From an uncultured virus (IMG/VR IMGVR_UViG_3300021961_000062) (Duplodnaviria > Heunggongvirae > Uroviricota > Caudoviricetes): a stretch of DNA of 64,000 nt. The stretch is from positions 1 through 64,000 of the IMG/VR virus record IMGVR_UViG_3300021961_000062; one strand, 5' to 3'. Of this stretch, positions 29,999 through 48,814 are shown piece after piece; the first letter of the stretch is position 1, and each line of letters begins with the position of its first letter. Below the pieces are notes generated by a model that made no database searches, had not been told where the DNA came from, and saw only the letters and a program-made list of their open reading frames with translations. A program made the translations under genes and the position numbers.

Positions 29999-30644
29999 TA
30001 TTGAAAGTATAGTTAAAAAGACATTAAATGAGAGATATGAAATAAACAGATCTCTACGTCTTATCATTGAAAATGAAGAAACTTCTGATGATGAAAAATT
30101 AGATGGTGTACTTGATGCACTCATGGCATTATCAGATGAGGGTAAATCTGAAGAGGAGATAGAAGGGTCATTGGACGAGAGCATTACTGGTTGGTTAACA
30201 AAAACATTTGGACTGGGTAATGACAAATCTTCGGATGGGGGAGGTGACACCTCTCTTTCTTTGGGTAACTTGGGTTCTAAAGCAGGATCTGGAGTGTTTT
30301 CACAAATGAGAGAGTGGTTTATCAGAAAAGGTTTAGGATTTTTAGGTTTTGAGGGAGCCCTGGCCGACGCTATGGCGGCGATGTTTGCTGATTTAGATAT
30401 AAGAGCAATAATCGCATTGTTCAGAGGTGGTAATGCTTGTCAACAGTACGGTGATCAAATTGCCGATGCGATCCTCGAAGGTATTGGTACCTATGTTATG
30501 GGTGGTGCCGAAAATAACAGTATGGCACAAAACTTACTTAGAAATATGGTATTTGAATTTGAAAAATCATCTCAAATCGGTGAGATTATTGCTAGTAAAG
30601 TGTGTAGTTTCAATGTGAGGGGAGCACTGACAAATTCAATTTAA
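29985..30644 (+). CDS. Putative virion protein
   Basis: Last gene of the late operon; overlaps the previous stop. Confidence 0.5.
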   Translation: MMVNNIESIVKKTLNERYEINRSLRLIIENEETSDDEKLDGVLDALMALSDEGKSEEEIEGSLDESITGWLTKTFGLGNDKSSDGGGDTSLSLGNLGSKAGSGVFSQMREWFIRKGLGFLGFEGALADAMAAMFADLDIRAIIALFRGGNACQQYGDQIADAILEGIGTYVMGGAENNSMAQNLLRNMVFEFEKSSQIGEIIASKVCSFNVRGALTNSI

Positions 30645-30664
30645 AAATTTTAAAAATATATGTT

Positions 30665-30694
30665 AAATGACCCTCCAAGTGAGGGTCATTTTTT
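30665..30694 (+). terminator. Intrinsic terminator
   Basis: AAATGACCCTC-CAAGT-GAGGGTCATTTTTT. Confidence 0.85.
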
Positions 30695-30715
30695 GTTTAT
30701 GAGATATTTATTAGT

Positions 30716-30818
30716 ATGAGATCAGTACTTTGGTCGGTACTCGGTTGATAAACGAAAATAACGAAAAGGAGGTGTTACTTATCTCGGCAAAGGGGTCATT
30801 GACCTCTTTGTTCGTTTA
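30716..30818 (+). ncRNA. Candidate late small RNA A carrying an extended Shine-Dalgarno and a 10-codon mini-ORF (30716-30748)
   Basis: TATTTAT 30705-30711, AAAGGAGGTGTT 30765-30776, closing hairpin 30786-30812. Confidence 0.55.
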
Positions 30819-31080
30819 CGACTTTTTGAAGTTCTTTAATCGCCTTATCCTTCAAACTTTCCTCCACTAATGACTCTTCTATTTTATATTTTTTCTTATA
30901 TCGTTCTTCAAAAGAGGATCCCACTCCGATTTCTAAAATTTCCGCATCGTTTGGTATTAGAGGTTTCCTCTTCCCCATATCAATGACATCATCGACTAAG
31001 ATGTCGTGAAAAACTTTCAGGTTTAGTTTTTCCTTCTTTCGATATATTGTTTTATAAACTACAACTACAGGTGGTTTCAT
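30796..31080 (-). CDS. Hypothetical protein
   Basis: TATTTAT 5 nt upstream (31086-31092). Confidence 0.55.
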   Translation of the reverse strand: MKPPVVVVYKTIYRKKEKLNLKVFHDILVDDVIDMGKRKPLIPNDAEILEIGVGSSFEERYKKKYKIEESLVEESLKDKAIKELQKVVNEQRGQ

Positions 31081-31093
31081 ATCATATAAATAG

Positions 31094-31119
31094 AAAAAAG
31101 GGATCCGAAGATCCCTTTT
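31094..31119. terminator. Terminator downstream of tmRNA
   Basis: AAAAGGGATC-CGAA-GATCCCTTTT. Confidence 0.8.
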
Positions 31120-31531
31120 GGTGGAGGTGGCGGGGTTCGAACCCGCGTCTTGTTCGTCCCAACCATAAAGGACTACACGTTTAGGTTAAGGTTTTTCATA
31201 CCTTCCAAAATATTTGGTTCCTATTTTGACATTGTTACCAACAACTGTGTCGAGTTCACTTTTAATAAGGTAGTACTCTGAACGAGACCTTTGACACTCC
31301 AAGTGGTATCACACTATAAGACTTCTGTTCCAAGGTACATGTCCACCGACCCGTCGTAGGAATAACCTTAGGCTACTGCTACTTTAGAATCAACAGATAC
31401 GAGACCCATTAATTCCATTTGTGAATAAACGTTGCCGTCTAAAAAAACGTCACCATAGATTAAAGTGATAGGAAACATCTCACTACGTGCCCCGTATGAC
31501 TGACTACGCCAATCAATGCCATGTCACCCCC
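31119..31531 (-). ncRNA. ssrA: tmRNA
   Basis: 5' GGGGGTGAC, 3' GCGGGTTCGAACCCCGCCACCTCCACCA with G3.U alanine pair; internal tag frame 31436-31368. Confidence 0.92.
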
Positions 31532-31538
31532 GTACTAA

Positions 31539-31799
31539 TTACTTAGTGTTATAAGGTTGTCTTCCATTACCTGAAGAACCACCTTGTTTTGGTTTGTTAT
31601 TGTAGTATCTCTTCTTCTTTGGTTTTGGAGATTCTGACAATTCAATATCAGATTTAATTTCCGCACTTTTGGGTAACCCTGTACCTGATGGTTTTGGGGT
31701 TCTGTTTGCGGGCTTAGGTCTTGAAACAGGTGCCGGTTTAACAGCGACGGTTTCCTTTACTCCAAAGAGTCTTTTAAAAAATGAAATAATTTTGTTCAT
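31539..31799 (-). CDS. Basic Pro-rich small protein
   Basis: Amphipathic N-terminus IISFFKRLFG; TATTTAT 31817-31823; probably co-transcribed with tmRNA. Confidence 0.55.
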   Translation of the reverse strand: MNKIISFFKRLFGVKETVAVKPAPVSRPKPANRTPKPSGTGLPKSAEIKSDIELSESPKPKKKRYYNNKPKQGGSSGNGRQPYNTK

Positions 31800-31844
31800 A
31801 ATAAAATGTTTTATATATAAATATACGAAAAATTATGGTTTTTG

Positions 31845-32510
31845 TCAAACCTTTATGGGTAGGTGTTTTTCGTACAACGCCTCAAAGAATAATTTACTCT
31901 TTGCCCATTTTTTATCCACTTCACCTATTGATTTATGGTAAAGTTTTATTTTAGTTGTGATACCCACTTTAACTCCCTCTAAGTGATTTAATAAACATAT
32001 GGGTAAGTCGTAGAAGTGAAATCCGTCAAATTGGGTATCAAAGTTTTTCTTTATTCTCTTTTTATGGATCATCATAAACAAACCGTCGATTACTACAACC
32101 TCCTTAATTTTATCTTCGAAGGAATTAGAGTACTTAGAGATATATTTTTTACCATCGTGAATATGACCAACTTGCCCCTGCATAGAGTCCCTATCTTGCC
32201 ACCATTGTCCTGAAATTAAATTATCCGTACCGGCCAAACCTATAATCCCATATTCGGGATTTTTATCAAATAATTTAATGATTTTAGGGGTAAGGTTTTT
32301 AGTTTCTAATTCCAGGTCGTCGTGGATAAAAACAACAATATCATTATCGGATTGATCTAATCCCTCATTATAAACCTGAGTGAGGGACTTAGTCCCATCA
32401 TTCTCAATAAAAATGTATTGATTCTTGGGATGAGAAAAAAATTTCTTAATATGATTAACGTATGTGTCGTCAATTTTTCGAGTAGAACATACAACGGTAA
32501 TTGTATTCAT
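31845..32510 (-). CDS. Glycosyltransferase family 2-like
   Basis: YNEGL..DIVVFIHDD, IDGLFM, FHFYD. Confidence 0.8.
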   Translation of the reverse strand: MNTITVVCSTRKIDDTYVNHIKKFFSHPKNQYIFIENDGTKSLTQVYNEGLDQSDNDIVVFIHDDLELETKNLTPKIIKLFDKNPEYGIIGLAGTDNLISGQWWQDRDSMQGQVGHIHDGKKYISKYSNSFEDKIKEVVVIDGLFMMIHKKRIKKNFDTQFDGFHFYDLPICLLNHLEGVKVGITTKIKLYHKSIGEVDKKWAKSKLFFEALYEKHLPIKV

Positions 32511-32540
32511 AAATTAAGGGATATACCCTTAATGATAAAA

Positions 32541-32732
32541 CTATTGGGTGGATTTGTCAAGACTTTTTTTAATATGTTTAAATGCCTCCTCATAAACAGG
32601 TAACATATCATAAGCGGTGGGACGAGGTTTGATTTCACTTTTGGAAACCATATCCCTTAATTGGTCAGCAACACCCAAAGAATGTGCTTCATACATCAAC
32701 TCCTCTAATAAGTCACTACTTGTTAAACCCAT
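32541..32732 (-). CDS. Hypothetical protein
   Basis: Short ORF overlapping the upstream small ORF. Confidence 0.45.
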   Translation of the reverse strand: MGLTSSDLLEELMYEAHSLGVADQLRDMVSKSEIKPRPTAYDMLPVYEEAFKHIKKSLDKSTQ

Positions 32733-32853
32733 CACCAATATTGTCTAACTCTTGTTGTAATTTTTGTATTTGTCGTTTTATTTCTTGAGTTTGTTTTTCA
32801 AACTTAAGTTTTAAAATTTTATCTATTATCAATTTTTTATCTAATAGTGACAT
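32716..32853 (-). CDS. Small coiled-coil protein (45 aa), not in the ORF track
   Basis: MSLLDKKLIIDKILKLKFEKQTQEIKRQIQKLQQELDNIGDGFNK; TATTTAT 4 nt upstream. Confidence 0.55.
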   Translation of the reverse strand: MSLLDKKLIIDKILKLKFEKQTQEIKRQIQKLQQELDNIGDGFNK

Positions 32854-32892
32854 ATTAATAAATATGTAACAATTTAGTATGTTAAAAAATAA

Positions 32893-33345
32893 TTATCGAC
32901 ATTGGTAGTCCGCCGCCCTACTAGCAATTTGTTCGTTAGGTTTCACATTAACCTTAAAACCTAACGAATTAGCCCAACCTTTCGCCATAGGGATAAGTTT
33001 ATTGGAATAATACTTATCATTAGAATTATAATCTAAGTCAATTTGTATTTCCACCTTTATTTTTTCTGATATCCATTGAGCAATTTCTATTGAATATTCA
33101 GATTCTTTTAATAGTCGTGTAAATTTATCATTTATCCTATCTACACTAAAATTTTTATATATGTAATGGACGCCTCTACTTCCATACCTATATGCGATAA
33201 CAATAGAATATTTTGTGATCAAAGCCGAGTTTTGGGAGTCACAACCAACGTGAATTACAGTGTATGGACACAATTCTAAAACCTCTAAAGTGTGTTTTAC
33301 TATCTCTACTTTAGTTCCATCTATTTTTTGAAAGACTTTGACCAT
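32893..33345 (-). CDS. RNase H-like YkuK (DUF458) family protein
   Basis: VGCDSQ, RLLKE...SIEIA, IDLDYN, KP...ASRAAD; directly downstream of the tRNA array. Confidence 0.8.
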   Translation of the reverse strand: MVKVFQKIDGTKVEIVKHTLEVLELCPYTVIHVGCDSQNSALITKYSIVIAYRYGSRGVHYIYKNFSVDRINDKFTRLLKESEYSIEIAQWISEKIKVEIQIDLDYNSNDKYYSNKLIPMAKGWANSLGFKVNVKPNEQIASRAADYQCR

Positions 33346-33372
33346 TCATATTTTTATTATTTTAAATTATTG

Positions 33373-33446
33373 TGGACCTAGAGGGACTCGAACCCCCGAC
33401 CAATTGATTATGAGTCAACTGCTCTAACCGACTGAGCTATAAGTCC
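33373..33446 (-). tRNA. tRNA-CAT (Ile2 or Met)
   Basis: Cloverleaf GGACTTA..., loop CTCATAA, TTCGAGT. Confidence 0.9.
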
Positions 33447-33452
33447 AATAAA

Positions 33453-33549
33453 AAAACGGCGGGGGTTTGCGACCCCCATTTCTACTTCTGAATATGCTGA
33501 TTAAGTCGACCTCACAGCAGGAATTTCATTTTCGTCTAATTACCGTCTT
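33453..33549 (-). ncRNA. tRNA-like RNA C (acceptor + T-like arm only)
   Basis: AAGACGGT/GCCGTTTT stem stacked on GGGGG-TCGCAAA-CCCCC; central TGCTG/CAGCA arm. Confidence 0.5.
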
Positions 33550-33551
33550 CG

Positions 33552-33625
33552 CTCTCCATCGAGGACTTGAACCTCGGACCTATTGATTAACAGTCAACCG
33601 CTCTAACCGACTGAGCTAATGGAGA
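33552..33625 (-). tRNA. tRNA-Asn(GTT)
   Basis: Cloverleaf, loop CTGTTAA, G73. Confidence 0.93.
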
Positions 33626-33634
33626 ATTGATATG

Positions 33635-33711
33635 TTGGGATGACGGGACTTGAACCCATATGTAACCACTTACTCTTTCTACAAGGTATAAGCTTGAGGA
33701 GATACATCCCA
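33635..33711 (-). ncRNA. Atypical tRNA-like RNA with TAT anticodon-like loop and no 5' D arm
   Basis: TGGGATG/CATCCCA acceptor, ATGGG-TTCAAGT-CCCGT T arm, CAAG-CTTATAC-CTTG. Confidence 0.65.
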
Positions 33712-33716
33712 ATCTG

Positions 33717-33789
<73 letters not shown>

Positions 33790-33792
33790 ATT

Positions 33793-33868
33793 AGGTTGAG
33801 GTAGGAATCGAACCTATCACGTCACGTCCCGTGTTTGCGGGATTGCTCTACCACTGAGCTACTCAACC
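33793..33868 (-). tRNA. Atypical tRNA with non-canonical anticodon loop
   Basis: Canonical acceptor stem, D arm and T loop; anticodon arm TCCCG-CAAACA-CGGGA has no U33. Confidence 0.65.
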
Positions 33869-33875
33869 CGTTTGA

Positions 33876-34034
33876 TTATTCCGCCACGGAATCCGTCGAT
33901 ACCGAATCAACAACCACTTCTTCAACAGATACGGAATCAACAACCACTTCTTCAGAAGTTTGATCTTGATTGTTACTGTTGTTACAAGCGATTAAAGTAG
34001 CGGTAGCGAATAACAGAAAAAATAATTTTTTCAT
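33876..34034 (-). CDS. Small acidic lipoprotein (52 aa)
   Basis: MKKLFFLLFATATLIAC lipobox; EEVVVDSVS twice; the longer ORF-track start overlaps tRNA-Asp. Confidence 0.7.
   Translation of the reverse strand: MKKLFFLLFATATLIACNNSNNQDQTSEEVVVDSVSVEEVVVDSVSTDSVAE
33898..33954. repeat. 27-nt direct repeat with 30-nt period
   Basis: GATAC(C/G)GAATCAACAACCACTTCTTCA twice, in frame in the lipoprotein. Confidence 0.85.
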
Positions 34035-34095
34035 TTCACTATTTTGTTTAATCAATTTATCATGGATTCTTTTGATGGTGACCATTATCCATTTG

Positions 34096-34169
34096 CGGTA
34101 TGGACGGGACTCGAACCCGCGACCACTTGAGTGACAGTCAAGTATTCTAACCAGCTGAACTACCACACC
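34096..34169 (-). tRNA. tRNA-Asp(GTC)
   Basis: Cloverleaf, loop CTGTCAC, G73. Confidence 0.93.
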
Positions 34170-34176
34170 GAATCAG

Positions 34177-34305
34177 CAATCAGGGTGGGATTCGAACCCA
34201 CATCCACTTTCGGTCGGACTGGCTTGTCATTTTGACTTCCCACGTTGTACACCGTGTTGTCCTGTGGAGTACCGATACCTACACATACCAATGTGCGACC
34301 TGATT
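34177..34305 (-). ncRNA. tRNA-Trp-like RNA with 56-nt structured anticodon loop
   Basis: AATCAGG/CCTGATT, G73, D arm, TCGGT/ACCGA stem, GTGGG-TTCGAAT-CCCAC. Confidence 0.65.
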
Positions 34306-34357
34306 GTTTGCCACATTAGCTCCACTTTGTTTTTCCCAAAGAACAAAGAAACTTTTG

Positions 34358-34442
34358 CGGAGAGTGAGAGATTCGAACTCCCGGAACCTTTCAGTTCAAT
34401 AGTTTTCAAGACTACCGCAATCGACCACTCTGCCAACTCTCC
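34358..34442 (-). tRNA. tRNA-Ser(TGA)
   Basis: Class II cloverleaf, loop CTTGAAA. Confidence 0.93.
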
Positions 34443-34466
34443 AAACGACTTACATGGCATGCTAAG

Positions 34467-34539
34467 TGACCCTGGAACGACTCGAACGTTCGACCGACTG
34501 CTTAGAAGGCAGTTGCTCTATCCACTGAGCTACAGGGCC
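34467..34539 (-). tRNA. tRNA-Arg(TCT)
   Basis: Cloverleaf, loop CTTCTAA. Confidence 0.93.
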
Positions 34540-34541
34540 AT

Positions 34542-34617
34542 AAAAAAGAGACCCGGGCCCAACAAGCCGCCCGTTGTGAAACGAAATTAGACGGAAGGGC
34601 CCTTTTGAAGGTCTCTC
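34542..34617 (-). ncRNA. Candidate hairpin RNA D between tRNA-Leu and tRNA-Arg
   Basis: Nested stems AGAGACC/GGTCTCT, GGGCCC/GGGCCC, CCGT/ACGG around a pyrimidine-rich loop; ends in a U run. Confidence 0.5.
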
Positions 34618-34619
34618 AG

Positions 34620-34705
34620 TACCACCTGCCGGAATCGAACCGGCACGGACATCACTGCCCAAGGGATTTTAAGTCCCTCGTGTCTACCTATTTCACCAAG
34701 GTGGC
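34620..34705 (-). tRNA. tRNA-Leu(TAA)
   Basis: Class II cloverleaf, loop CTTAAAA. Confidence 0.93.
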
Positions 34706-34719
34706 AATACTTTTCCCAT

Positions 34720-34743
34720 ATGTCAAAGAACACTTCAAATATA
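34720..34743 (-). promoter_or_regulatory. Host-type -7 promoter followed by boxA-like element
   Basis: TATATTTG (34743-34736) then GTTCTTTGACAT (34731-34720). Confidence 0.7.
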
Positions 34744-34829
34744 CAGGCAATATTCTTTAAAATCAATAGGGATAAAAAAAATCCCCCACATTTCTGAGGG
34801 GGATTATACTATCGTTCTGTAACTACTTA

Positions 34830-35207
34830 TTAATCAGTTAATAATTGTTTAGATTTTTTTACGGGTTCACACCCATCTTTATCGATTTTCACCAATCGAT
34901 TCTCAAATTTATCAAACCTACTGTCAATATAACGGTATATGTCGTTCATGTTGTCTTCATGATTCTTATACATTTGATCCGTATATCTCATAGTTTCATT
35001 ATGTAGGCCATCTGTTCTACTTATTTCACCATCTATACGTAGGTGAAGTTCTCTTTGGTTTTCATCCAAATTTCTGAATATTCCATTGATAGCTTCCTCG
35101 AAACCATCGGAACGTTGCTTAACCTTAAACACACCCATAACAGCATACCCCAATCCGAGTAAACCGATCATACTGAGCGCACCTAAAATAAATTCTAAAT
35201 TTTCCAT
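34830..35207 (-). CDS. Membrane-anchored coiled-coil protein
   Basis: N-terminal TM; followed by a terminator hairpin near 34780-34805. Confidence 0.6.
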   Translation of the reverse strand: MENLEFILGALSMIGLLGLGYAVMGVFKVKQRSDGFEEAINGIFRNLDENQRELHLRIDGEISRTDGLHNETMRYTDQMYKNHEDNMNDIYRYIDSRFDKFENRLVKIDKDGCEPVKKSKQLLTD

Positions 35208-35230
35208 GTTTTTAATTTTTAGTTTTAATT

Positions 35231-35242
35231 ATGTCAAAGAAC
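35231..35242 (-). promoter_or_regulatory. boxA-like element
   Basis: Second exact copy of GTTCTTTGACAT. Confidence 0.6.
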
Positions 35243-35261
35243 GATAGTAATATCTTTCACG

Positions 35262-35404
35262 CTGTAGTGGAGGGATTCGAACCACTCACGAGGTCTTTAG
35301 CCATAGGACATTGTACATATTGTGGTCAACCCATTATCCTACGTTTGTCAGATGTTCCTCACCCCCGAGACAGGAGGGTATGTCTGCCGTTTCATCACAC
35401 TACA
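35262..35404 (-). ncRNA. Giant tRNA-like RNA (143 nt): Leu-type D arm, GTC anticodon-like loop, very long variable arm
   Basis: TGTAGTG/CACTACA, ATG-AAACGGCAGA-CAT, CCCTC-CTGTCTC-GGGGG, GGTTCGAATCC. Confidence 0.65.
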
Positions 35405-35415
35405 AACTGTGTTTG

Positions 35416-35489
35416 AGCCTCAGGAGGGATTCGAACCCCCGACAGGCTGATTACAAATCAGCTACTCTGGCCAACTGAGTTACTGAGGC
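35416..35489 (-). tRNA. tRNA-Thr(TGT)
   Basis: Cloverleaf, loop TTTGTAA. Confidence 0.93.
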
Positions 35490-35579
35490 TTACAATATGT
35501 TCCATAGTCTCGGTTTTTTAATTCGAAACCATATCGGTATAGTTTTAATTATTAAGAACCACTTAATTCTTTTCACCAT
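35490..35579 (-). CDS. Candidate 29-aa cationic Trp-rich peptide, not in the ORF track
   Basis: MVKRIKWFLIIKTIPIWFRIKKPRLWNIL; TATTTAT 5 nt upstream; stop abuts tRNA-Thr. Confidence 0.4.
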   Translation of the reverse strand: MVKRIKWFLIIKTIPIWFRIKKPRLWNIL

Positions 35580-35693
35580 ACTATATAAATAATACAAAAA
35601 AAATTTAGATTAATCAACAGAGTTTATCTTGATTTTAAGAACTATTTATAGTTAAGACCTTAAAAAGTCTAATAAAAAGTAAAAAAGAGAGAC

Positions 35694-35933
35694 ATGGCAT
35701 TTAAAGACATTTTTAAAGACAAGAATGATTACAATGAAAAATCTATTGTGGGTTTTGCATCATTCGCAGTAATGGTATTATTCGCAGTTGCGGATTTGAC
35801 CACAGGTTATTTTGGTAAAGACCTCGTTATTAACGAGTTTATTTACAATTCATTTGTGGTAATAACACTTGGATCTTTTGGTATTGCTGAAGTAGGTAAA
35901 GTTTTCGGTAAGAAGGATTCAACAGAAGAATAA
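35694..35933 (+). CDS. Putative holin (2 TM)
   Basis: Two TM helices, charged C-terminus, directly upstream of the amidase; TATTTAT 35643-35649. Confidence 0.55.
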   Translation: MAFKDIFKDKNDYNEKSIVGFASFAVMVLFAVADLTTGYFGKDLVINEFIYNSFVVITLGSFGIAEVGKVFGKKDSTEE

Positions 35934-35944
35934 AGAAAAAAATC

Positions 35945-36868
35945 ATGTTATTAAAAGTAGGATCAAAAGGAGAACTCGTAAAAGATGTTCAGGAAGTTGT
36001 TGGGGTTACCGCAGATGGTGTCTTTGGACCTGGTACAGAAGCGGCAGTAAAAAAATGGCAATCAGCAAACGGATTAACTGCCGATGGAATTGTTGGTAAT
36101 GCAACATTAGGGAAGATGGGATTGTTAGACACGGATAGATCTATTAGTGAATCTATTCCTGAAGCTTCTTCAGGTTTGTACACTAAAAAAACATACACAT
36201 CCCCTAATGGTATTGAAGTGATTGAGTATTTCATGCCAAAAGACGAGTATTTGAAGGGTCCAATTAAACCCGAATGGTTATTCTTACATCACACCGCGGG
36301 TTGGCATAACCCGTATAACACAATTAAATCGTGGGATGCGGATAAAAGTGGTCAAATTGCCACAGAATTTGTTTTAGGTGGACAATCTGTAAAGGGTAAC
36401 GATGATCAGTATGATGGTATATTAGTACAAGCATTTCCTAAAGGAAACTATGCGTGGCATTTAGGTAAGAACGGATCACAGACGATGCATAAAAACTCTG
36501 TAGGTATCGAAGTTTGTAATTTTGGATACGTTGTTAACGGAAAGACCTACGCGGGATCAACCGTAGATGAATCCCAAATTGTTAAATTGTCAAAACCATT
36601 TAGAGGTCATACTGATTGGCACAGATATTCTGATAAACAGATTGAGGTTTTACATAAGTGGATTCTTTGGATTGCGGAAAGAGACGGTATCGATGTAAGA
36701 GCTGGGTTACCCGCATTAGTTAAGAAAAACGGGGCGGACGCTTTCGAGTTTAATGACGACGCTTATTATGGTAAAGTTAAAGGTCTTTGGACCCATACTA
36801 ATACAAGAAAAGATAAGGTTGACATGTTCCCTCAACAAGAGTTGATGGATATGTTAGTGAGTCTATAA
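35945..36868 (+). CDS. Endolysin: PG-binding domain + N-acetylmuramoyl-L-alanine amidase (Amidase_2)
   Basis: ADGVFGPGT/ADGIVG repeats; LHHTAG, AWHLG, SVGIEV, TH...K.D. Confidence 0.88.
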   Translation: MLLKVGSKGELVKDVQEVVGVTADGVFGPGTEAAVKKWQSANGLTADGIVGNATLGKMGLLDTDRSISESIPEASSGLYTKKTYTSPNGIEVIEYFMPKDEYLKGPIKPEWLFLHHTAGWHNPYNTIKSWDADKSGQIATEFVLGGQSVKGNDDQYDGILVQAFPKGNYAWHLGKNGSQTMHKNSVGIEVCNFGYVVNGKTYAGSTVDESQIVKLSKPFRGHTDWHRYSDKQIEVLHKWILWIAERDGIDVRAGLPALVKKNGADAFEFNDDAYYGKVKGLWTHTNTRKDKVDMFPQQELMDMLVSL

Positions 36869-36869
36869 A

Positions 36870-36973
36870 AAATAAACCCCAACAAGGATGCTGGGGTTTT
36901 AGGTCTACATTGGGTTCAACCCCAATGCTTTAACGAGAAAAAACGAAAAGGTAATCGGCAAAGAGAACCTTCG
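36870..36973 (-). ncRNA. Candidate late small RNA B, complementary to RNA A
   Basis: TATTTAT 36978-36984 with no ORF behind it; CATTGGGT/ACCCAATG hairpin; terminator 36874-36900 shared with the endolysin. Confidence 0.55.
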
Positions 36974-37015
36974 ATGTATAAATATATATTTTTTTTAAAA
37001 AAGTTCAGATTTTAG

Positions 37016-39031
37016 TTAAATGAGGGGAAGATTTTTGGAAATTTCCAAATTCCCCTCTTTTATTTTTAACAAGATCTCCACATTTTCTACAATATTACCC
37101 ATCAAAATTTCATCACTTATAAAATCTTCACATAGATTTTGAATAATTCTTTTGATTGGTCGGGCACCATACTCTTCCTCAGAATTAAGTTTCAAAATTT
37201 CGTCATAAACGGTTTTGTCAAAAGTTATTTTATAAGAATTCTCGTTTAACCTATTAATTAAAGACTGTAGTTCAATCTGTACGATTTTTCTTAGAGATTT
37301 ATCATCTAACTTGTTGAAGACGATTATATCATCTACCCTATTTAAGAATTCTGGTGAGAATTGTTGCTTCAAAGACTTCTTTATAATTGAATCTCTTACT
37401 TTTTCTTGGTTATTATCGTTTGTGAACCCGACACCACCACCAAAATCAGATACTTTCTTAGCACCAATATTTGATGTCATAATAATCAGAGTGTTTGTGA
37501 AATTAACTTTCCTACCAAAAGAATCGGTTAAGTGACCTTCATCCAAAATCTGTAGTAGAATGTTAAAGACATCCTTATGTGCCTTTTCAATTTCATCAAA
37601 TAAAACAACGGAGAATGGATTGTTTTTTATCTTCTCCGTCAATTGACCACCTTCGTCGTATCCAACGTACCCGGGAGGAGACCCAATCAAACGAGAAACA
37701 TTATGTTTTTCCATAAACTCACTCATATCGACCCTAATAATTTTTTCAGGATCCCCAAAAAGTGTTTTAGCTAATGTTTTGGCTAAGTGTGTTTTACCAA
37801 CACCGGTAGATCCTAAAAACATGAATGACCCAATGGGTTTATTTGCGTTTTTAACACCGACTCTGTTTCTTCTTATTGATTTTGAGATTTTAGAAACCGC
37901 ATCGTCTTGACCAATAACATTTTTAGAGATGGTTTTTTCTAACGATAATAAAGATTTACTTTCTTTGGTGTCCAATTTTGAGATTGGTACTCCCGTCATG
38001 GAGGTAATGAGATTATAAACATCCTCAACACTAATCTCTTTTCTGTTTACTTGTTGTTCGTCGTTCCATTTTTTCTTTTCTGACTCCAACTTTTTGAGGA
38101 CCTTCTTTTCTTCATCTCTGAGTTGTGCCGCCTGTTCATAGTCTTGACTTTTTACGACCTCTAATTTTCTTGTTTTGATTTTCTCCGATTCCTTTTTTAA
38201 CTTCTCAATAGAGTCGGGAATCTTCACATTTATTTTTTTCTCAGAACCTAATTCATCCAAAACGTCAATCGCCTTATCGGGAAACTGTTTATCAGTAATA
38301 TATCTTTTACTAAGGGATACGATAGTTTCGATAACATTAGAATTATAAGAAACCCTGTGAAACTCCTCATATGAAGGTTTTAAGTTGTAAAGAATATCAA
38401 TTGTTTCATCCACAGTGGGTTCGTTAAGTATAATTTTTTGAAATCTCCTTACCAACGCACCATCTTTTTCAATGTTCTTTTTGAATTCATCAAATGTTGT
38501 GGCACCAATACATTGAATTTCTCCTCGAGCCAATGCGGGTTTTAAAATATTCGCAGCATCCATAGACCCCGACGCATTACCCGCACCAACCATAGTGTGA
38601 ATTTCGTCTATAAAGACAATTACGTTTGGGGCTTCCTGTAGTTCATTTAAGATAGCTTTAATTCTCTCTTCAAACTGTCCCCTATACTTTGTACCTGCAA
38701 CTAAAGATGTGAGGTCTAAGGACATTATTCGTTTATCCAGTAGATTGGTGGGACAGTTACCGTTTGTAATTAGTAGGGCTAACTTTTCTACTAACGCAGA
38801 TTTACCCACACCCGCGTCACCAACGATGACAACGTTATTTTTCTTTTTCCTTGATAGTATTTGGGCTATTCTCATAACCTCCTTACCCCTACCTATGATA
38901 GGATCTATCAACCCCTCACTCGCCAATCGAGTGAGATCCCTTGAGAAGTTATCGAGTACTGGTGTATTAGACCCTCTCTTACTTTTTCTCTGTTGTGATG
39001 GTGACCCACCTTCAAAAAAATCCACGGACAT
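37016..39031 (-). CDS. clpC: ClpC-like AAA+ unfoldase lacking the N-terminal Clp-repeat domain
   Basis: Two AAA+ modules (GDAGVGKS, GSTGVGKT), pore loops KYRG/GYVG, UVR domain QDYEQAAQLRD, VGF ClpP-docking loop. Confidence 0.9.
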   Translation of the reverse strand: MSVDFFEGGSPSQQRKSKRGSNTPVLDNFSRDLTRLASEGLIDPIIGRGKEVMRIAQILSRKKKNNVVIVGDAGVGKSALVEKLALLITNGNCPTNLLDKRIMSLDLTSLVAGTKYRGQFEERIKAILNELQEAPNVIVFIDEIHTMVGAGNASGSMDAANILKPALARGEIQCIGATTFDEFKKNIEKDGALVRRFQKIILNEPTVDETIDILYNLKPSYEEFHRVSYNSNVIETIVSLSKRYITDKQFPDKAIDVLDELGSEKKINVKIPDSIEKLKKESEKIKTRKLEVVKSQDYEQAAQLRDEEKKVLKKLESEKKKWNDEQQVNRKEISVEDVYNLITSMTGVPISKLDTKESKSLLSLEKTISKNVIGQDDAVSKISKSIRRNRVGVKNANKPIGSFMFLGSTGVGKTHLAKTLAKTLFGDPEKIIRVDMSEFMEKHNVSRLIGSPPGYVGYDEGGQLTEKIKNNPFSVVLFDEIEKAHKDVFNILLQILDEGHLTDSFGRKVNFTNTLIIMTSNIGAKKVSDFGGGVGFTNDNNQEKVRDSIIKKSLKQQFSPEFLNRVDDIIVFNKLDDKSLRKIVQIELQSLINRLNENSYKITFDKTVYDEILKLNSEEEYGARPIKRIIQNLCEDFISDEILMGNIVENVEILLKIKEGNLEISKNLPLI

Positions 39032-39088
39032 ATGTATCTTGTTTTAACTTTTATAAAGATAACAAAAATTGAACTAAGAGTCAATAGA

Positions 39089-39180
39089 TGTCAAAATGTC
39101 ATAATATTATTTTTTATTTTAACTAATATATGAAAAAATGTCATAATATTCTAATTTTTTTTCATTGGCACCTGATTTGA
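39089..39180 (+). promoter_or_regulatory. sigma54-like promoter with upstream repeated boxes
   Basis: TGGCAC-N5-TTGA at 39166-39180; TGTCAAAATGTCA 39089-39101 and TGAAAAAATGTCA 39131-39143. Confidence 0.5.
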
Positions 39181-39220: not shown

Positions 39221-39601
39221 ATGATTACTTTACTTAAAAACGATCCGTTTTTTACTAACTTATTAGATTTGGTTTTCGATGCTGAAGATGAAAATTTATG
39301 GAAAGGTCATGTACACGTACATAAGTCTGTTAATGATGAGGGTATTACCTTAGAGTTTATTGTTCCAGGTTTAACAAAGGAGGATGTTTCAATTCTTGCT
39401 GAGGACAGAGTGTTGAGGATTGAGTATTCGCCCGATGAAGGGAAGAAGAATAAATTTGTGGGGTCGTTCCGAAGATCATACACTATGGGTGACGATTTAG
39501 ATAATAAAAAGGTCGAAGCCAAACTTGAGAATGGGATACTGACAATTAATATTCCAAAACTAAAAAAGAAAAATACTCAAAGAAGTATTTCAATCAACTA
39601 A
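39221..39601 (+). CDS. Small heat-shock protein (Hsp20)
   Basis: VPGLTKEDV, SFRRSY, AKLENGILTINIPK, C-terminal IxI. Confidence 0.92.
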   Translation: MITLLKNDPFFTNLLDLVFDAEDENLWKGHVHVHKSVNDEGITLEFIVPGLTKEDVSILAEDRVLRIEYSPDEGKKNKFVGSFRRSYTMGDDLDNKKVEAKLENGILTINIPKLKKKNTQRSISIN

Positions 39602-39712: not shown

Positions 39713-39958
39713 ATGGCGGTTACATCAGAAAAAATCAACGGTAAGGAGATACTTGTCGAGATTCAATCATCGAATTTGAAGTCTGCGTCTTATAATACTG
39801 AAGACGAAACATTACAGGTCACTTTTAATAGTGGGGGTGTTTATGAGTATTATAAGGTTCCGTGGGAAAAGTTCACAAAACTTAGGATGGCGGAATCCCA
39901 AGGAAGGTTTTTCAATTTACAAATTGCGAAAACCCACGAGTACAAAAAACTGAAATGA
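39713..39958 (+). CDS. KTSC domain protein
   Basis: SSNLKSASYN...LQVTFNSGGVYEY..VP...AESQGRFFN. Confidence 0.88.
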   Translation: MAVTSEKINGKEILVEIQSSNLKSASYNTEDETLQVTFNSGGVYEYYKVPWEKFTKLRMAESQGRFFNLQIAKTHEYKKLK

Positions 39959-44161: not shown

Positions 44162-44207
44162 AATCTAAAGTGGTCATAATCGACCACTTTTTTTGTATTT
44201 ATAGGAT

Positions 44208-48624: not shown

Positions 48625-48814
48625 ATTTCTGTTCTTGGTCTTTTAATTGTTGAATGTACTGAGCCTTCTTTTTTTGAAGTCTACGGGAAACTGACGGTTT
48701 AGTGAATTCTTGACGATCTCTAAGGAATTGGACTTGTTTCGTATTCCTAACTTTAGTTTTTAATTTTTTAAGGGCTTGATCGATGTTCCCGTTGAAGACT
48801 TTTACTATTAGCAT
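48623..48814 (-). CDS. rpsU: Ribosomal protein bS21 (phage-encoded)
   Basis: MLIVKV..NIDQALKK.K.K...LRDRQEFTKPSV.RR...KAQY; 63 aa from ATG 48814; TATTTAT 48837-48843. Confidence 0.9.
   Translation of the reverse strand: MLIVKVFNGNIDQALKKLKTKVRNTKQVQFLRDRQEFTKPSVSRRLQKKKAQYIQQLKDQEQK

Follow-up and report, generated by a model that had tools for sequence, protein, structure and literature searches.

A conserved small RNA gene behind clp in a Flavobacteriia jumbo phage and its possible pairing with a second phage RNA that resembles a ribosome-binding region

Among the RNA regulators described so far, those closest to the system presented here are the sponges or anti-small RNAs (anti-sRNAs) AgvB-GcvB and AsxR-FnrS, from prophages of enterohaemorrhagic Escherichia coli (EHEC), and SprY-RNAIII, in all of which, according to the passages at hand of the review PMC12197685, a small RNA (sRNA) neutralises a regulatory RNA and not a messenger RNA (mRNA). 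The same passages (PMC12197685) present the c4 RNA of phages P1 and P7 as a structured phage RNA which blocks a ribosome-binding region through complementarity offered in a loop. This work deals with two candidate sRNAs, RNA A and RNA B, encoded on opposite strands of an uncultured virus of the Caudoviricetes (IMG/VR record IMGVR_UViG_3300021961_000062, positions 1 to 64,000, a stretch of 64,000 nucleotides (nt) that we call the window) and complementary to each other in two blocks. In contrast to AgvB, AsxR and SprY, both partners belong here to a single lytic-type jumbo phage and share the same promoter motif, RNA A bears a look-alike of a ribosome-binding region instead of an mRNA seed, and no kinship in sequence or in Rfam connects the systems. 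As for c4, its pairing involves two blocks, a' and b'. The target of c4, however, is the ant mRNA of its own operon and the context is immunity, whereas the target proposed here has no open reading frame (ORF) and the two genes lie 6-35 kb apart. Neither the A nor the B locus reached the gathering score of c4 or of any other Rfam covariance model, or came near it: the best hit in E-value scans of both loci had 23.6 bits against a cut-off of 55, and a gathering scan of the window with Rfam 15 returned only a transfer-messenger RNA (tmRNA) and tRNAs.

A further point of comparison comes from the Flavobacteriia hosts themselves. In these hosts, ribosomal protein bS21 normally hides the anti-Shine-Dalgarno (anti-SD) sequence of the 16S rRNA, a long Shine-Dalgarno (SD) sequence being found in rpsU only. 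As reported in PMC9976891 and PMC7797042, helices of 9-13 base pairs (bp) with the 16S tail are a special mark of rpsU in the Flavobacteriales, the rpsU mRNA is translated by ribosomes lacking bS21, and the remaining genes avoid SD sequences. RNA A is similar to an rpsU leader in the 8-13 contiguous bp that it can form with the 16S 3' tail, compared with 9-13 bp in rpsU (PMC7797042 and PMC9976891), and differs from it in being encoded by a phage, in showing AUC in place of AUG, and in having a dedicated complementary RNA, RNA B. The first-pass annotation of this DNA, made from the letters alone, had proposed an RNA/anti-RNA switch that it did not recognise as described, and in this regard we agree: no Rfam family matches, and no description of these RNAs was found in the literature searched. 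The passages of PMC12197685 at hand carry no mention of Flavobacter, jumbo or Bacteroid, and their sponge, anti-sRNA and antisense sections treat other systems; likewise, the available part of PMC9723584, which excludes its supplements, holds no mention of non-coding or small RNA, intergenic regions, tmRNA or promoters.

RNA B is encoded on the minus strand, directly behind the clp gene of the phage, and consists of the following parts.

36866-36987, minus strand: RNA B gene, with promoter motif, transcript of about 105 nt and terminator, recognised by covariance model R2 with 124 bits (E 1e-22)
36977-36987, minus strand: promoter-like motif ATATATTTATA, containing TATTTAT and nearly invariant in 39 aligned B genes
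36947-36972, minus strand: hairpin 1 of RNA B, stem GAAGGU/ACCUUU, with a loop that exposes UCUCUUUGCCGA in the minimum-free-energy fold
36955-36966, minus strand: block 2', UCUCUUUGCCGA, complementary to RNA A 30784-30795
36932-36951, minus strand: block 1', CCUUUUCGUU (36942-36951), together with its U-rich extension UUUUCUCGUU, complementary to RNA A 30750-30769
36908-36927, minus strand: hairpin 2 of RNA B, with invariant loop GUUGAA and compensatory changes in four of its five pairs
36902-36905, minus strand: GACC (within AGACCU), conserved in the alignments, a possible 4-bp contact with GGUC in the P1 loop of RNA A
36864-36899, minus strand: intrinsic terminator of RNA B, a GC-rich hairpin with a U run, bidirectional, which also ends the convergent endolysin gene

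The starting point for this gene had been a TATTTAT motif read on the minus strand at 36978-36984, pointing into a unit without ORFs that would end in a terminator. All three elements stand where the first-pass annotation had placed them: the motif is present at those positions, the unit (36870-36984) lies between the clp stop at 37016 and the endolysin end at 36868 without any minus-strand ORF of at least 40 amino acids, and a hairpin followed by a T-run occupies 36899-36864. The whole element recurs behind Clp homologues of 71-100% protein identity, giving 52 distinct sequences, 39 of which were used to build the covariance model R2. In 76 of 79 Clp-anchored loci this model finds a single copy, on the Clp strand and downstream of clp, and in the three loci that it misses only 0-4 nt of flank are left after clp. 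RNA B is also retained when a gene has been inserted between it and clp (loci L038, L047, L057 and L079) or when the downstream neighbour is a different one. The order on the minus strand is ATATATTTATA, the hairpin with UCUCUUUGCCGA in its loop, CCUUUUCGUU with the U-rich run, the GUUGAA hairpin, AGACCU and the terminator, and conservation of this element is far above that of the flanking intergenic DNA.

A consensus fold of the 39 sequences comprises three hairpins, in which 97.6% of 741 cells are paired and nine of 19 pairs show compensatory changes. Hairpin 1 keeps a consensus stem AGGU/ACCU with one pair that varies among UA, AU, CG and GU, and in hairpin 2 the column pair 81/96 takes five pair types. 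Compensatory changes affect four of the eight pairs of the terminator, and two pairs alternate between G.U and A-U; on the opposite strand these would become C.A, so the structure belongs to the minus strand. None of 500 column shuffles reached the alignment in any of five measures, and partners slid out of register were paired in only 29-61% of cells. All this argues that RNA B is a real, conserved minus-strand sRNA gene with its promoter motif, covarying hairpins and terminator, and at the level of sequence it has the makings of an independent transcription unit, the transcript, its strand and its ends being predicted. No terminator separates the clp stop (37016) from RNA B, for which reason the B sequence probably doubles as the 3' untranslated region (UTR) of the clp mRNA early in infection, and this leaves room for an action of RNA A on the clp mRNA.

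A scan of genomic contigs gave at least 120 stretches; among the matches listed, all looked like chance except for one copy of RNA B (L572). This copy sits in a 248-kb contig that was binned into a metagenome-assembled genome (MAG) of the Flavobacteriaceae and that also carries a phage-type bS21 gene, so that we may be dealing either with a phage contig binned with its host or with a mis-binned one. The same MAG (G019:C1 and G019:C3) has a second bS21, of host type, on another contig, where the host-type rpsU lacks a strong SD sequence.

RNA A, encoded on the plus strand, has the following main parts.

30704-30818, plus strand: RNA A gene, recognised by covariance model R1 with 101.5 bits (E 1.8e-19), from the alignment and consensus fold of 20 sequences
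30760-30769, plus strand: block 1, AACGAAAAGG, exact complement of CCUUUUCGUU
30784-30795, plus strand: block 2, UCGGCAAAGGGG, which partly coincides with the 5' side of the RNA A terminator stem
30765-30776, plus strand: AAAGGAGGUGUU, 12 contiguous bases complementary to the Flavobacteriales 16S 3' tail

The RNA is organised as a ATATTTAT promoter motif, the P1 hairpin with loop UUUGGUCG, GAUAA, the element complementary to the 16S tail, AUCUCGGCAAAG and a terminator hairpin. In the A-type loci the shared features are GATATTTAT, a hairpin with invariant loop UUUGGUC and covarying stem, GAUAA, AACGAAAAGGAGGU and AUCUCGGCAAAG, and at their 3' end a covarying terminator hairpin is followed by a U-rich tail. 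Judging from this alignment, RNA A is the second conserved sRNA of the phage. A scan with an exact pattern of the two words that make up the blocks retrieved 60 viral loci, of which 29 were B-type, 25 A-type and six unrelated, with a spacer between the two words of 2-4 nt in the B-type and of 12-15 nt in the A-type. Model R1 detects RNA A in ten Clp loci out of 79, at 3.3-6.3 kb from clp and encoded on the other strand than clp and RNA B; in other contigs RNA A is found about 15-35 kb from RNA B.

Two ways of reading RNA A as an mRNA were considered and rejected. A 10-codon ORF at 30716-30748 on the plus strand has its AUG four nt after TATTTAT, and it is restricted to the clade of the window: L123 has ACG instead, and other clades differ. 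Translation from the invariant AUC, on the other hand, yields neither a conserved frame nor a conserved stop. As a separate observation, a 94-amino-acid ORF of no known family (30796-31080, minus strand), with a TATTTAT of its own (31092), runs towards RNA A and has its stop inside the RNA A terminator hairpin. Its mRNA would cross RNA A in antisense as far as a bidirectional terminator (30665-30691) and would in this way be a cis-antisense partner of RNA A in the window clade.

The complementarity between RNAs A and B had been claimed as two blocks, one of 10 bp extendable by about eight more, and another of 12 bp with two wobbles, and it holds in every detail. CCUUUUCGUU (36942-36951) exactly complements AACGAAAAGG (30760-30769), eight further pairs follow across one mismatch and one bulge, and 36955-36966 faces 30784-30795, UCUCUUUGCCGA with UCGGCAAAGGGG, in ten Watson-Crick and two G.U pairs. 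Outside these two loci, the window contains no exact copy of the block motifs. Three of the four conserved unpaired elements of RNA B are complementary to conserved unpaired elements of RNA A, in colinear antiparallel order, and the GGUC and GACC motifs, invariant on both sides, could provide a third contact. The energies of the conserved cores (positions 30749-30795 of RNA A, which form the A core, with the first 52 nt of RNA B, and dinucleotide shuffles as controls) point in the same direction: the core duplex reaches -33.5 kcal/mol, compared with -17.5±3.5 for B shuffles (0 of 1000 as low; z -4.6) and -19.4±3.5 for A shuffles (1 of 1000 as low; z -4.0). Moreover, when 10,026 windows of 50 nt on both strands of the 75-kb contig are ranked as trans partners of the A core, the B window comes first.

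Comparison of related phages offered a second line of evidence, based on 41 pairs of A and B from the same contig, 35 of which are distinct. A contiguous helix of at least 9 bp can be formed by block 1 in 30 and by block 2 in 33 of these 35 pairs. At the first nine positions of block 2, 30 distinct pairs give 253 Watson-Crick, 13 G.U and four A.C cells, the latter all confined to the L076/L078 clade, and the predicted duplexes as a whole hold 893 Watson-Crick and 77 G.U pairs, compared with five A.C single mismatches. At A position 4/B position 6 of this block the same 30 pairs show G-C 16 times, G.U six times, A-U six times and A.C twice. The lengths of the A-run and the U-run also correspond, as exact AACGAAAAGG is paired with UUUU in RNA B in 15 of 15 cases (among the first 29 pairs), and a form with three A and three U is seen in L404/L643 as well as in the basal clade, as separate occurrences. 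In L108/L641, read by hand, block 1 is lengthened to 17 bp, with UUUU of RNA A facing AAAA of RNA B where elsewhere A's face U's. The proposed strands form a more stable duplex than the opposite strands in 28 of the 35 pairs (mean -2.9 kcal/mol, Wilcoxon p 2e-4), a test that measures wobble asymmetry only, since a perfect duplex scores equally either way. Almost all non-Watson-Crick cells are G.U; the first-pass annotation had taken the two wobbles of block 2 to fit selection for pairing rather than simple duplication. Cognate duplexes average -29.76 kcal/mol, compared with -26.30 over all permutations of partners and -28.25 over permutations within the three major clades, and none of 5000 permutations was as low as the cognate set, either overall or within clades. 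As for co-occurrence, the complete genome contains one RNA A and one RNA B, and RNA B is present in six of nine contigs bearing RNA A, the three misses being 15, 27 and 54% complete.

A number of observations weigh against the pairing of A and B. RNA B is no energetic outlier among genomic windows: the margin of the B window is small, -33.5 kcal/mol compared with -33.1 and -31.4 for the next two windows, and in the complete 335,630-bp relative G007 RNA B ranks third of 26,848 windows. With full-length RNAs, the cofold difference in free energy (ddG) is -9.7, a value matched by 17 of 300 shuffles, which average -5.5±2.6, and the full-length duplexfold value is -48.3 against -38.1±4.8 (nine of 300), a marginal gain. 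Block 2 has to compete with the terminator stem of RNA A and with the hairpin of RNA B itself, and the two-block three-way junction comes out 1.5-1.8 kcal/mol above the structure with block 1 alone, in a single-chain model with A and B joined by a 12-N linker. Given this marginal gain for the whole RNAs and a junction less stable than block 1 alone, energy by itself is not decisive. There are also exceptions in sequence: UCAACAAAG against CUUUGCCGA in L076/L078 leaves two A.C mismatches and a 6-bp helix in block 2; L004/L005 has uncompensated changes on both sides of block 1, with 5 bp left, although a shifted 8-bp register exists; CCUCUCGUU variants of RNA B stand opposite an unchanged RNA A (A.C); and the run lengths of L013 and L468 are unmatched. 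Covariation is scarce because the blocks vary so little: a poorly resolved tree of 30 A+B rows, with five of its 27 branches starred, provides only two independent contrasts on supported branches (sign test p 1), too few to lend the test any power, and neither the permutation nor the Wilcoxon test is corrected for phylogeny. Concerted change would also be produced by a DNA motif common to the two loci or by gene conversion between them. Finally, RNA A is found in just seven of 18 contigs with RNA B, the other 11 being fragments of which the largest is 74% complete.

Set against these points, the predictions of the first-pass annotation fare unevenly. A hybrid energy better than that of shuffled controls was obtained for the conserved cores but was only marginal for whole RNAs with their internal folding. 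Compensatory change is visible in the G-C, G.U and A-U states, the matched runs and the advantage of cognate over swapped partners, but the phylogenetic contrasts are too few to show it, and L076/L078 and L004/L005 go against it. Co-occurrence is seen in the complete genome and in most contigs with RNA A, but not in those fragments with RNA B alone. The three-way junction that had been foreseen is partly borne out, as GAGGU and AUCUC of RNA A do pair together, but the two-block form is less stable than block 1 alone by the energy already given, and the opening of the RNA A 3' hairpin by RNA B is thermodynamically possible but not favoured in the linker model. The idea of an RNA/anti-RNA switch thus keeps partial support in its sense of a pairing or sponge, and finds none in its sense of an antitoxin.

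The model that we favour would run as follows. A late-type promoter of its own, just after clp on the minus strand, would drive RNA B, which would pair in trans with RNA A. Block 2' sits in the apical loop of the B 5' hairpin, and about half of block 1' is taken up by the 3' strand of that stem; contact through a loop followed by zipping is the usual layout of antisense RNAs. First contact would be made between this loop, CUUUGYCGA, and UCGRCAAAG of RNA A, after which pairing would spread between CCUUU(U)CGUU plus the U run of RNA B and AACGAAA(A)GG plus the A-rich stretch of RNA A. The A segment left between the blocks would close on itself (GAGGU/AUCUC) to give a three-way junction, in such a way that RNA B would mask the 5' half of the 16S-complementary element of RNA A and clamp the remainder. 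RNA B overlaps the 5' part of this SD-like element as well as the bases immediately downstream of AUCUC. RNA A should accordingly be contested between RNA B and the ribosome, and RNA B would act as antagonist or sponge of RNA A; equally, RNA A could titrate RNA B. We regard the pairing itself, with RNA B as antagonist or partner of RNA A, as somewhat better than an even bet, whereas we infer from the sequences that the RNAs are transcribed and pair inside the cell, as well as the direction of control between them and any consequence for the ribosome.

Some explanations of the same data do without this pairing. The one that survives best, which we consider unlikely but worth keeping in mind, holds that RNA B is a genuine sRNA or an element of the clp 3' UTR that acts mainly with other RNAs or with a protein, the match to RNA A being secondary or a relic. 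It would account for the tie of RNA B to clp in 76 of the 76 loci with flank, with no terminator in between, which makes the element part of the clp mRNA; it would also account for hairpin 2 and its GUUGAA loop, on which RNA A has no bearing, and for the several lineages that tolerate mismatches with RNA A. It does not predict, however, that three of the four conserved unpaired elements of RNA B complement RNA A colinearly, that cognate partners surpass swapped ones even within clades, or that the exact block motifs of the window are found at the A and B loci alone.

An improbable explanation is that the shared sequence acts as DNA, either as a protein-binding site, inverted between the two loci, downstream of two late promoters or as recombining repeats, and that the match between the RNAs is a by-product. 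Identical plus-strand words, AACGAAAAGG and TCGGCAAAG, are indeed present at both loci, and this explanation accounts equally well for concerted changes such as those of the runs and the L108/L641 swap. But the words are 2-4 nt apart in RNA B and 12-15 nt apart in RNA A, and in RNA B they fall exactly on the hairpin loop and its 3' flank. Where the loci differ, the outcome is in the great majority of cases G.U and not A.C (77 against five single mismatches, besides the cells of L076/L078), in 28 of 35 pairs the opposite strands make the poorer duplex, and a conserved G.U position (GGGG in RNA A, UCUC in RNA B) speaks against homogenisation.

Much less credible is the absence of any RNA B, with a plain spacer and the bidirectional terminator of the convergent clp and endolysin genes in its place. 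The region does lie between convergent genes and its last hairpin is such a terminator, but upstream of it we find the conserved promoter motif, two covarying hairpins and three conserved unpaired motifs, the element is kept when another gene lies downstream or has been inserted, and its conservation is much above that of the intergenic DNA at its sides. Finally, a type I or type III toxin-antitoxin system, to which the first-pass annotation had alluded, has nothing in its favour beyond the broad scheme of an RNA faced by a counter-RNA and can practically be set aside, because RNA A lacks a conserved ORF, which argues against a toxin, has no AUG after its SD-like element (spacer 12-15 nt) and varies in its downstream hairpin by compensatory substitutions, while neither locus holds a tandem repeat array as in type III, each RNA is single copy with clp and endolysin as the neighbours of RNA B, and no Rfam toxin or antitoxin family matches.

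The resemblance of RNA A to a ribosome-binding region deserves separate attention. AAAGGAGGUGUU is the sole site with at least 10 nt of complementarity to the 16S tail on either strand of the 75-kb contig, the tail being taken from one Flavobacteriales MAG (L621), from which the phage's own host may differ. This complementarity amounts to at least 9 bp in 33 of 34 distinct RNA A copies (range 8-13 bp). The codon after the SD-like element is an invariant AUC, not AUG, and no conserved ORF follows; an rpsU leader would combine a start codon 5-9 nt after the SD sequence with a bS21 ORF, and RNA A does not show this combination. RNA A was also considered as a copy of the host rpsU leader, a candidate that we rejected, as the regions upstream of rpsU in two Flavobacteriales MAGs have neither a strong SD sequence nor similarity to RNA A; since these MAGs may not represent the host of the phage, this idea is unsupported rather than refuted.

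On these grounds we put forward, as a tentative and rather doubtful proposal, that RNA A may be a decoy of the rpsU initiation region, capturing 30S subunits that lack bS21 and have their anti-SD exposed, or pairing with the 16S tail. RNA B, in which ACCUUU(U)CG partly mimics the tail (ACCUCCUUUCU), would then clamp the SD-like element of RNA A in the three-way junction and work as the off-switch, and the pair together with the phage bS21 would exert control at the RNA level over the 'specialised' ribosomes of Flavobacteriia. To our knowledge, no such phage mechanism acting on specialised ribosomes has been described.

RNA B shares its promoter motif with structural genes of the phage. TATTTAT is found 4-41 nt ahead of the ATG in 16 of 63 ORFs of at least 100 amino acids, including those of terminase, portal and prohead protease, whereas SD-like 4-mers precede just three of the 63, compared with 8.1% of random windows. 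As a plain 7-mer it is not enriched overall (about 50 copies, close to expectation), and position alone distinguishes the motif. Its placement before structural-gene ATGs makes the label of late promoter reasonable but unproven. The region upstream of clp has sigma-70-like hexamers and no TATTTAT. Examples of TATTTAT(A/T), with very short leaders, occur at 44196, 46024, 49362 and 50131 on the plus strand and at 31092, 32864, 35591 and 48843 on the minus strand.

The main protein genes referred to in this work are the following.

37016-39031, minus strand: ClpA/B-type AAA+ ATPase gene (clp; PF07724, PF10431, phrog_4871), directly upstream of RNA B
35945-36868, plus strand: amidase-type endolysin gene, convergent to clp
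48656-48805, minus strand: gene of ribosomal protein bS21 (PF01165, 47.7 bits), between the portal and prohead-protease genes

The window covers 64 kb of a contig of 75,233 bp with 35.6% G+C, and the same phage is represented by a second record, a 183,758-bp IMG/VR contig (L015) with Clp identity of 100%. The genome carries head genes for a T4-like major capsid protein, terminase, portal and prohead protease, and the RNA genes of the window are one tmRNA and nine tRNA genes. Relatives measure about 290-335 kb, the largest (G007, 335,630 bp) being rated 100% complete, and the predicted host belongs to the Flavobacteriia. A bS21 gene is present in four of the four genomes searched (the window phage, G007, G016 and G018), and in the window phage it has TATTTAT upstream and no SD sequence. 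Jumbo phages of freshwater Flavobacteriia that encode bS21 are described in the available part of PMC9723584 (Chen et al. 2022), and, as far as this part goes, they share with the window phage a reverse-strand bS21 gene amid those for terminase, portal, protease and capsid. The position of bS21 among the head genes, the sizes of the relatives and the predicted host all fit this group, and the window phage is thus a member of the bS21-encoding Flavobacteriia jumbo phages. A megablast of 30500-37200 against phage records gave matches to tRNA-sized pieces only, and tblastn with Clp and the major capsid protein retrieved only distant matches of at most 54% identity.

Some other features of the neighbourhood are worth recording. 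The phage carries a chaperone set, as an Hsp20 small heat-shock gene (39221-39601, plus strand) adjoins clp, and a gene with a KTSC domain (39713-39958, plus strand) is also a neighbour. Between the divergent clp and Hsp20 genes, at 39083-39162, two tandem 38-nt repeats that are 82% alike contain sigma-70-like hexamers and, judging from their sequence, may serve the chaperone genes as early promoters or operators. The tmRNA (31119-31531, minus strand, 79.9 bits) has an unusual predicted tag, VDSKVAVA, and lies about 300 nt from RNA A. If RNA A, which combines an SD-like element with the lack of a stop codon, were translated at all, this would be non-stop translation; a functional connection between the tmRNA and RNA A would be pure speculation. 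The cluster of nine tRNAs (33372-35489, minus strand) includes an odd tRNA-like gene at 33792-33869, with a two-base anticodon according to ARAGORN and a low Rfam score of 38.8 bits.

RNA and counter-RNA pairs were already known; what is new is a single phage coding for both, with one of them bearing an rpsU-like SD element. RNAs A and B are found in well over a hundred metagenomic phage contigs, and a modest reading of the data defines two new structured phage RNA families together with a late-promoter motif. If the pairing is true, they would form a conserved pair of RNA and counter-RNA, both encoded by a large lytic-type phage. A phage sRNA with an rpsU-like SD element, together with an RNA that masks it, would make testable, with the ribosome assays that exist for Flavobacterium johnsoniae, the questions of why phages carry bS21 and of how they redirect host ribosomes late in infection, and the A/B pair suggests a manipulation of the host ribosome by means of an RNA and its counter-RNA.

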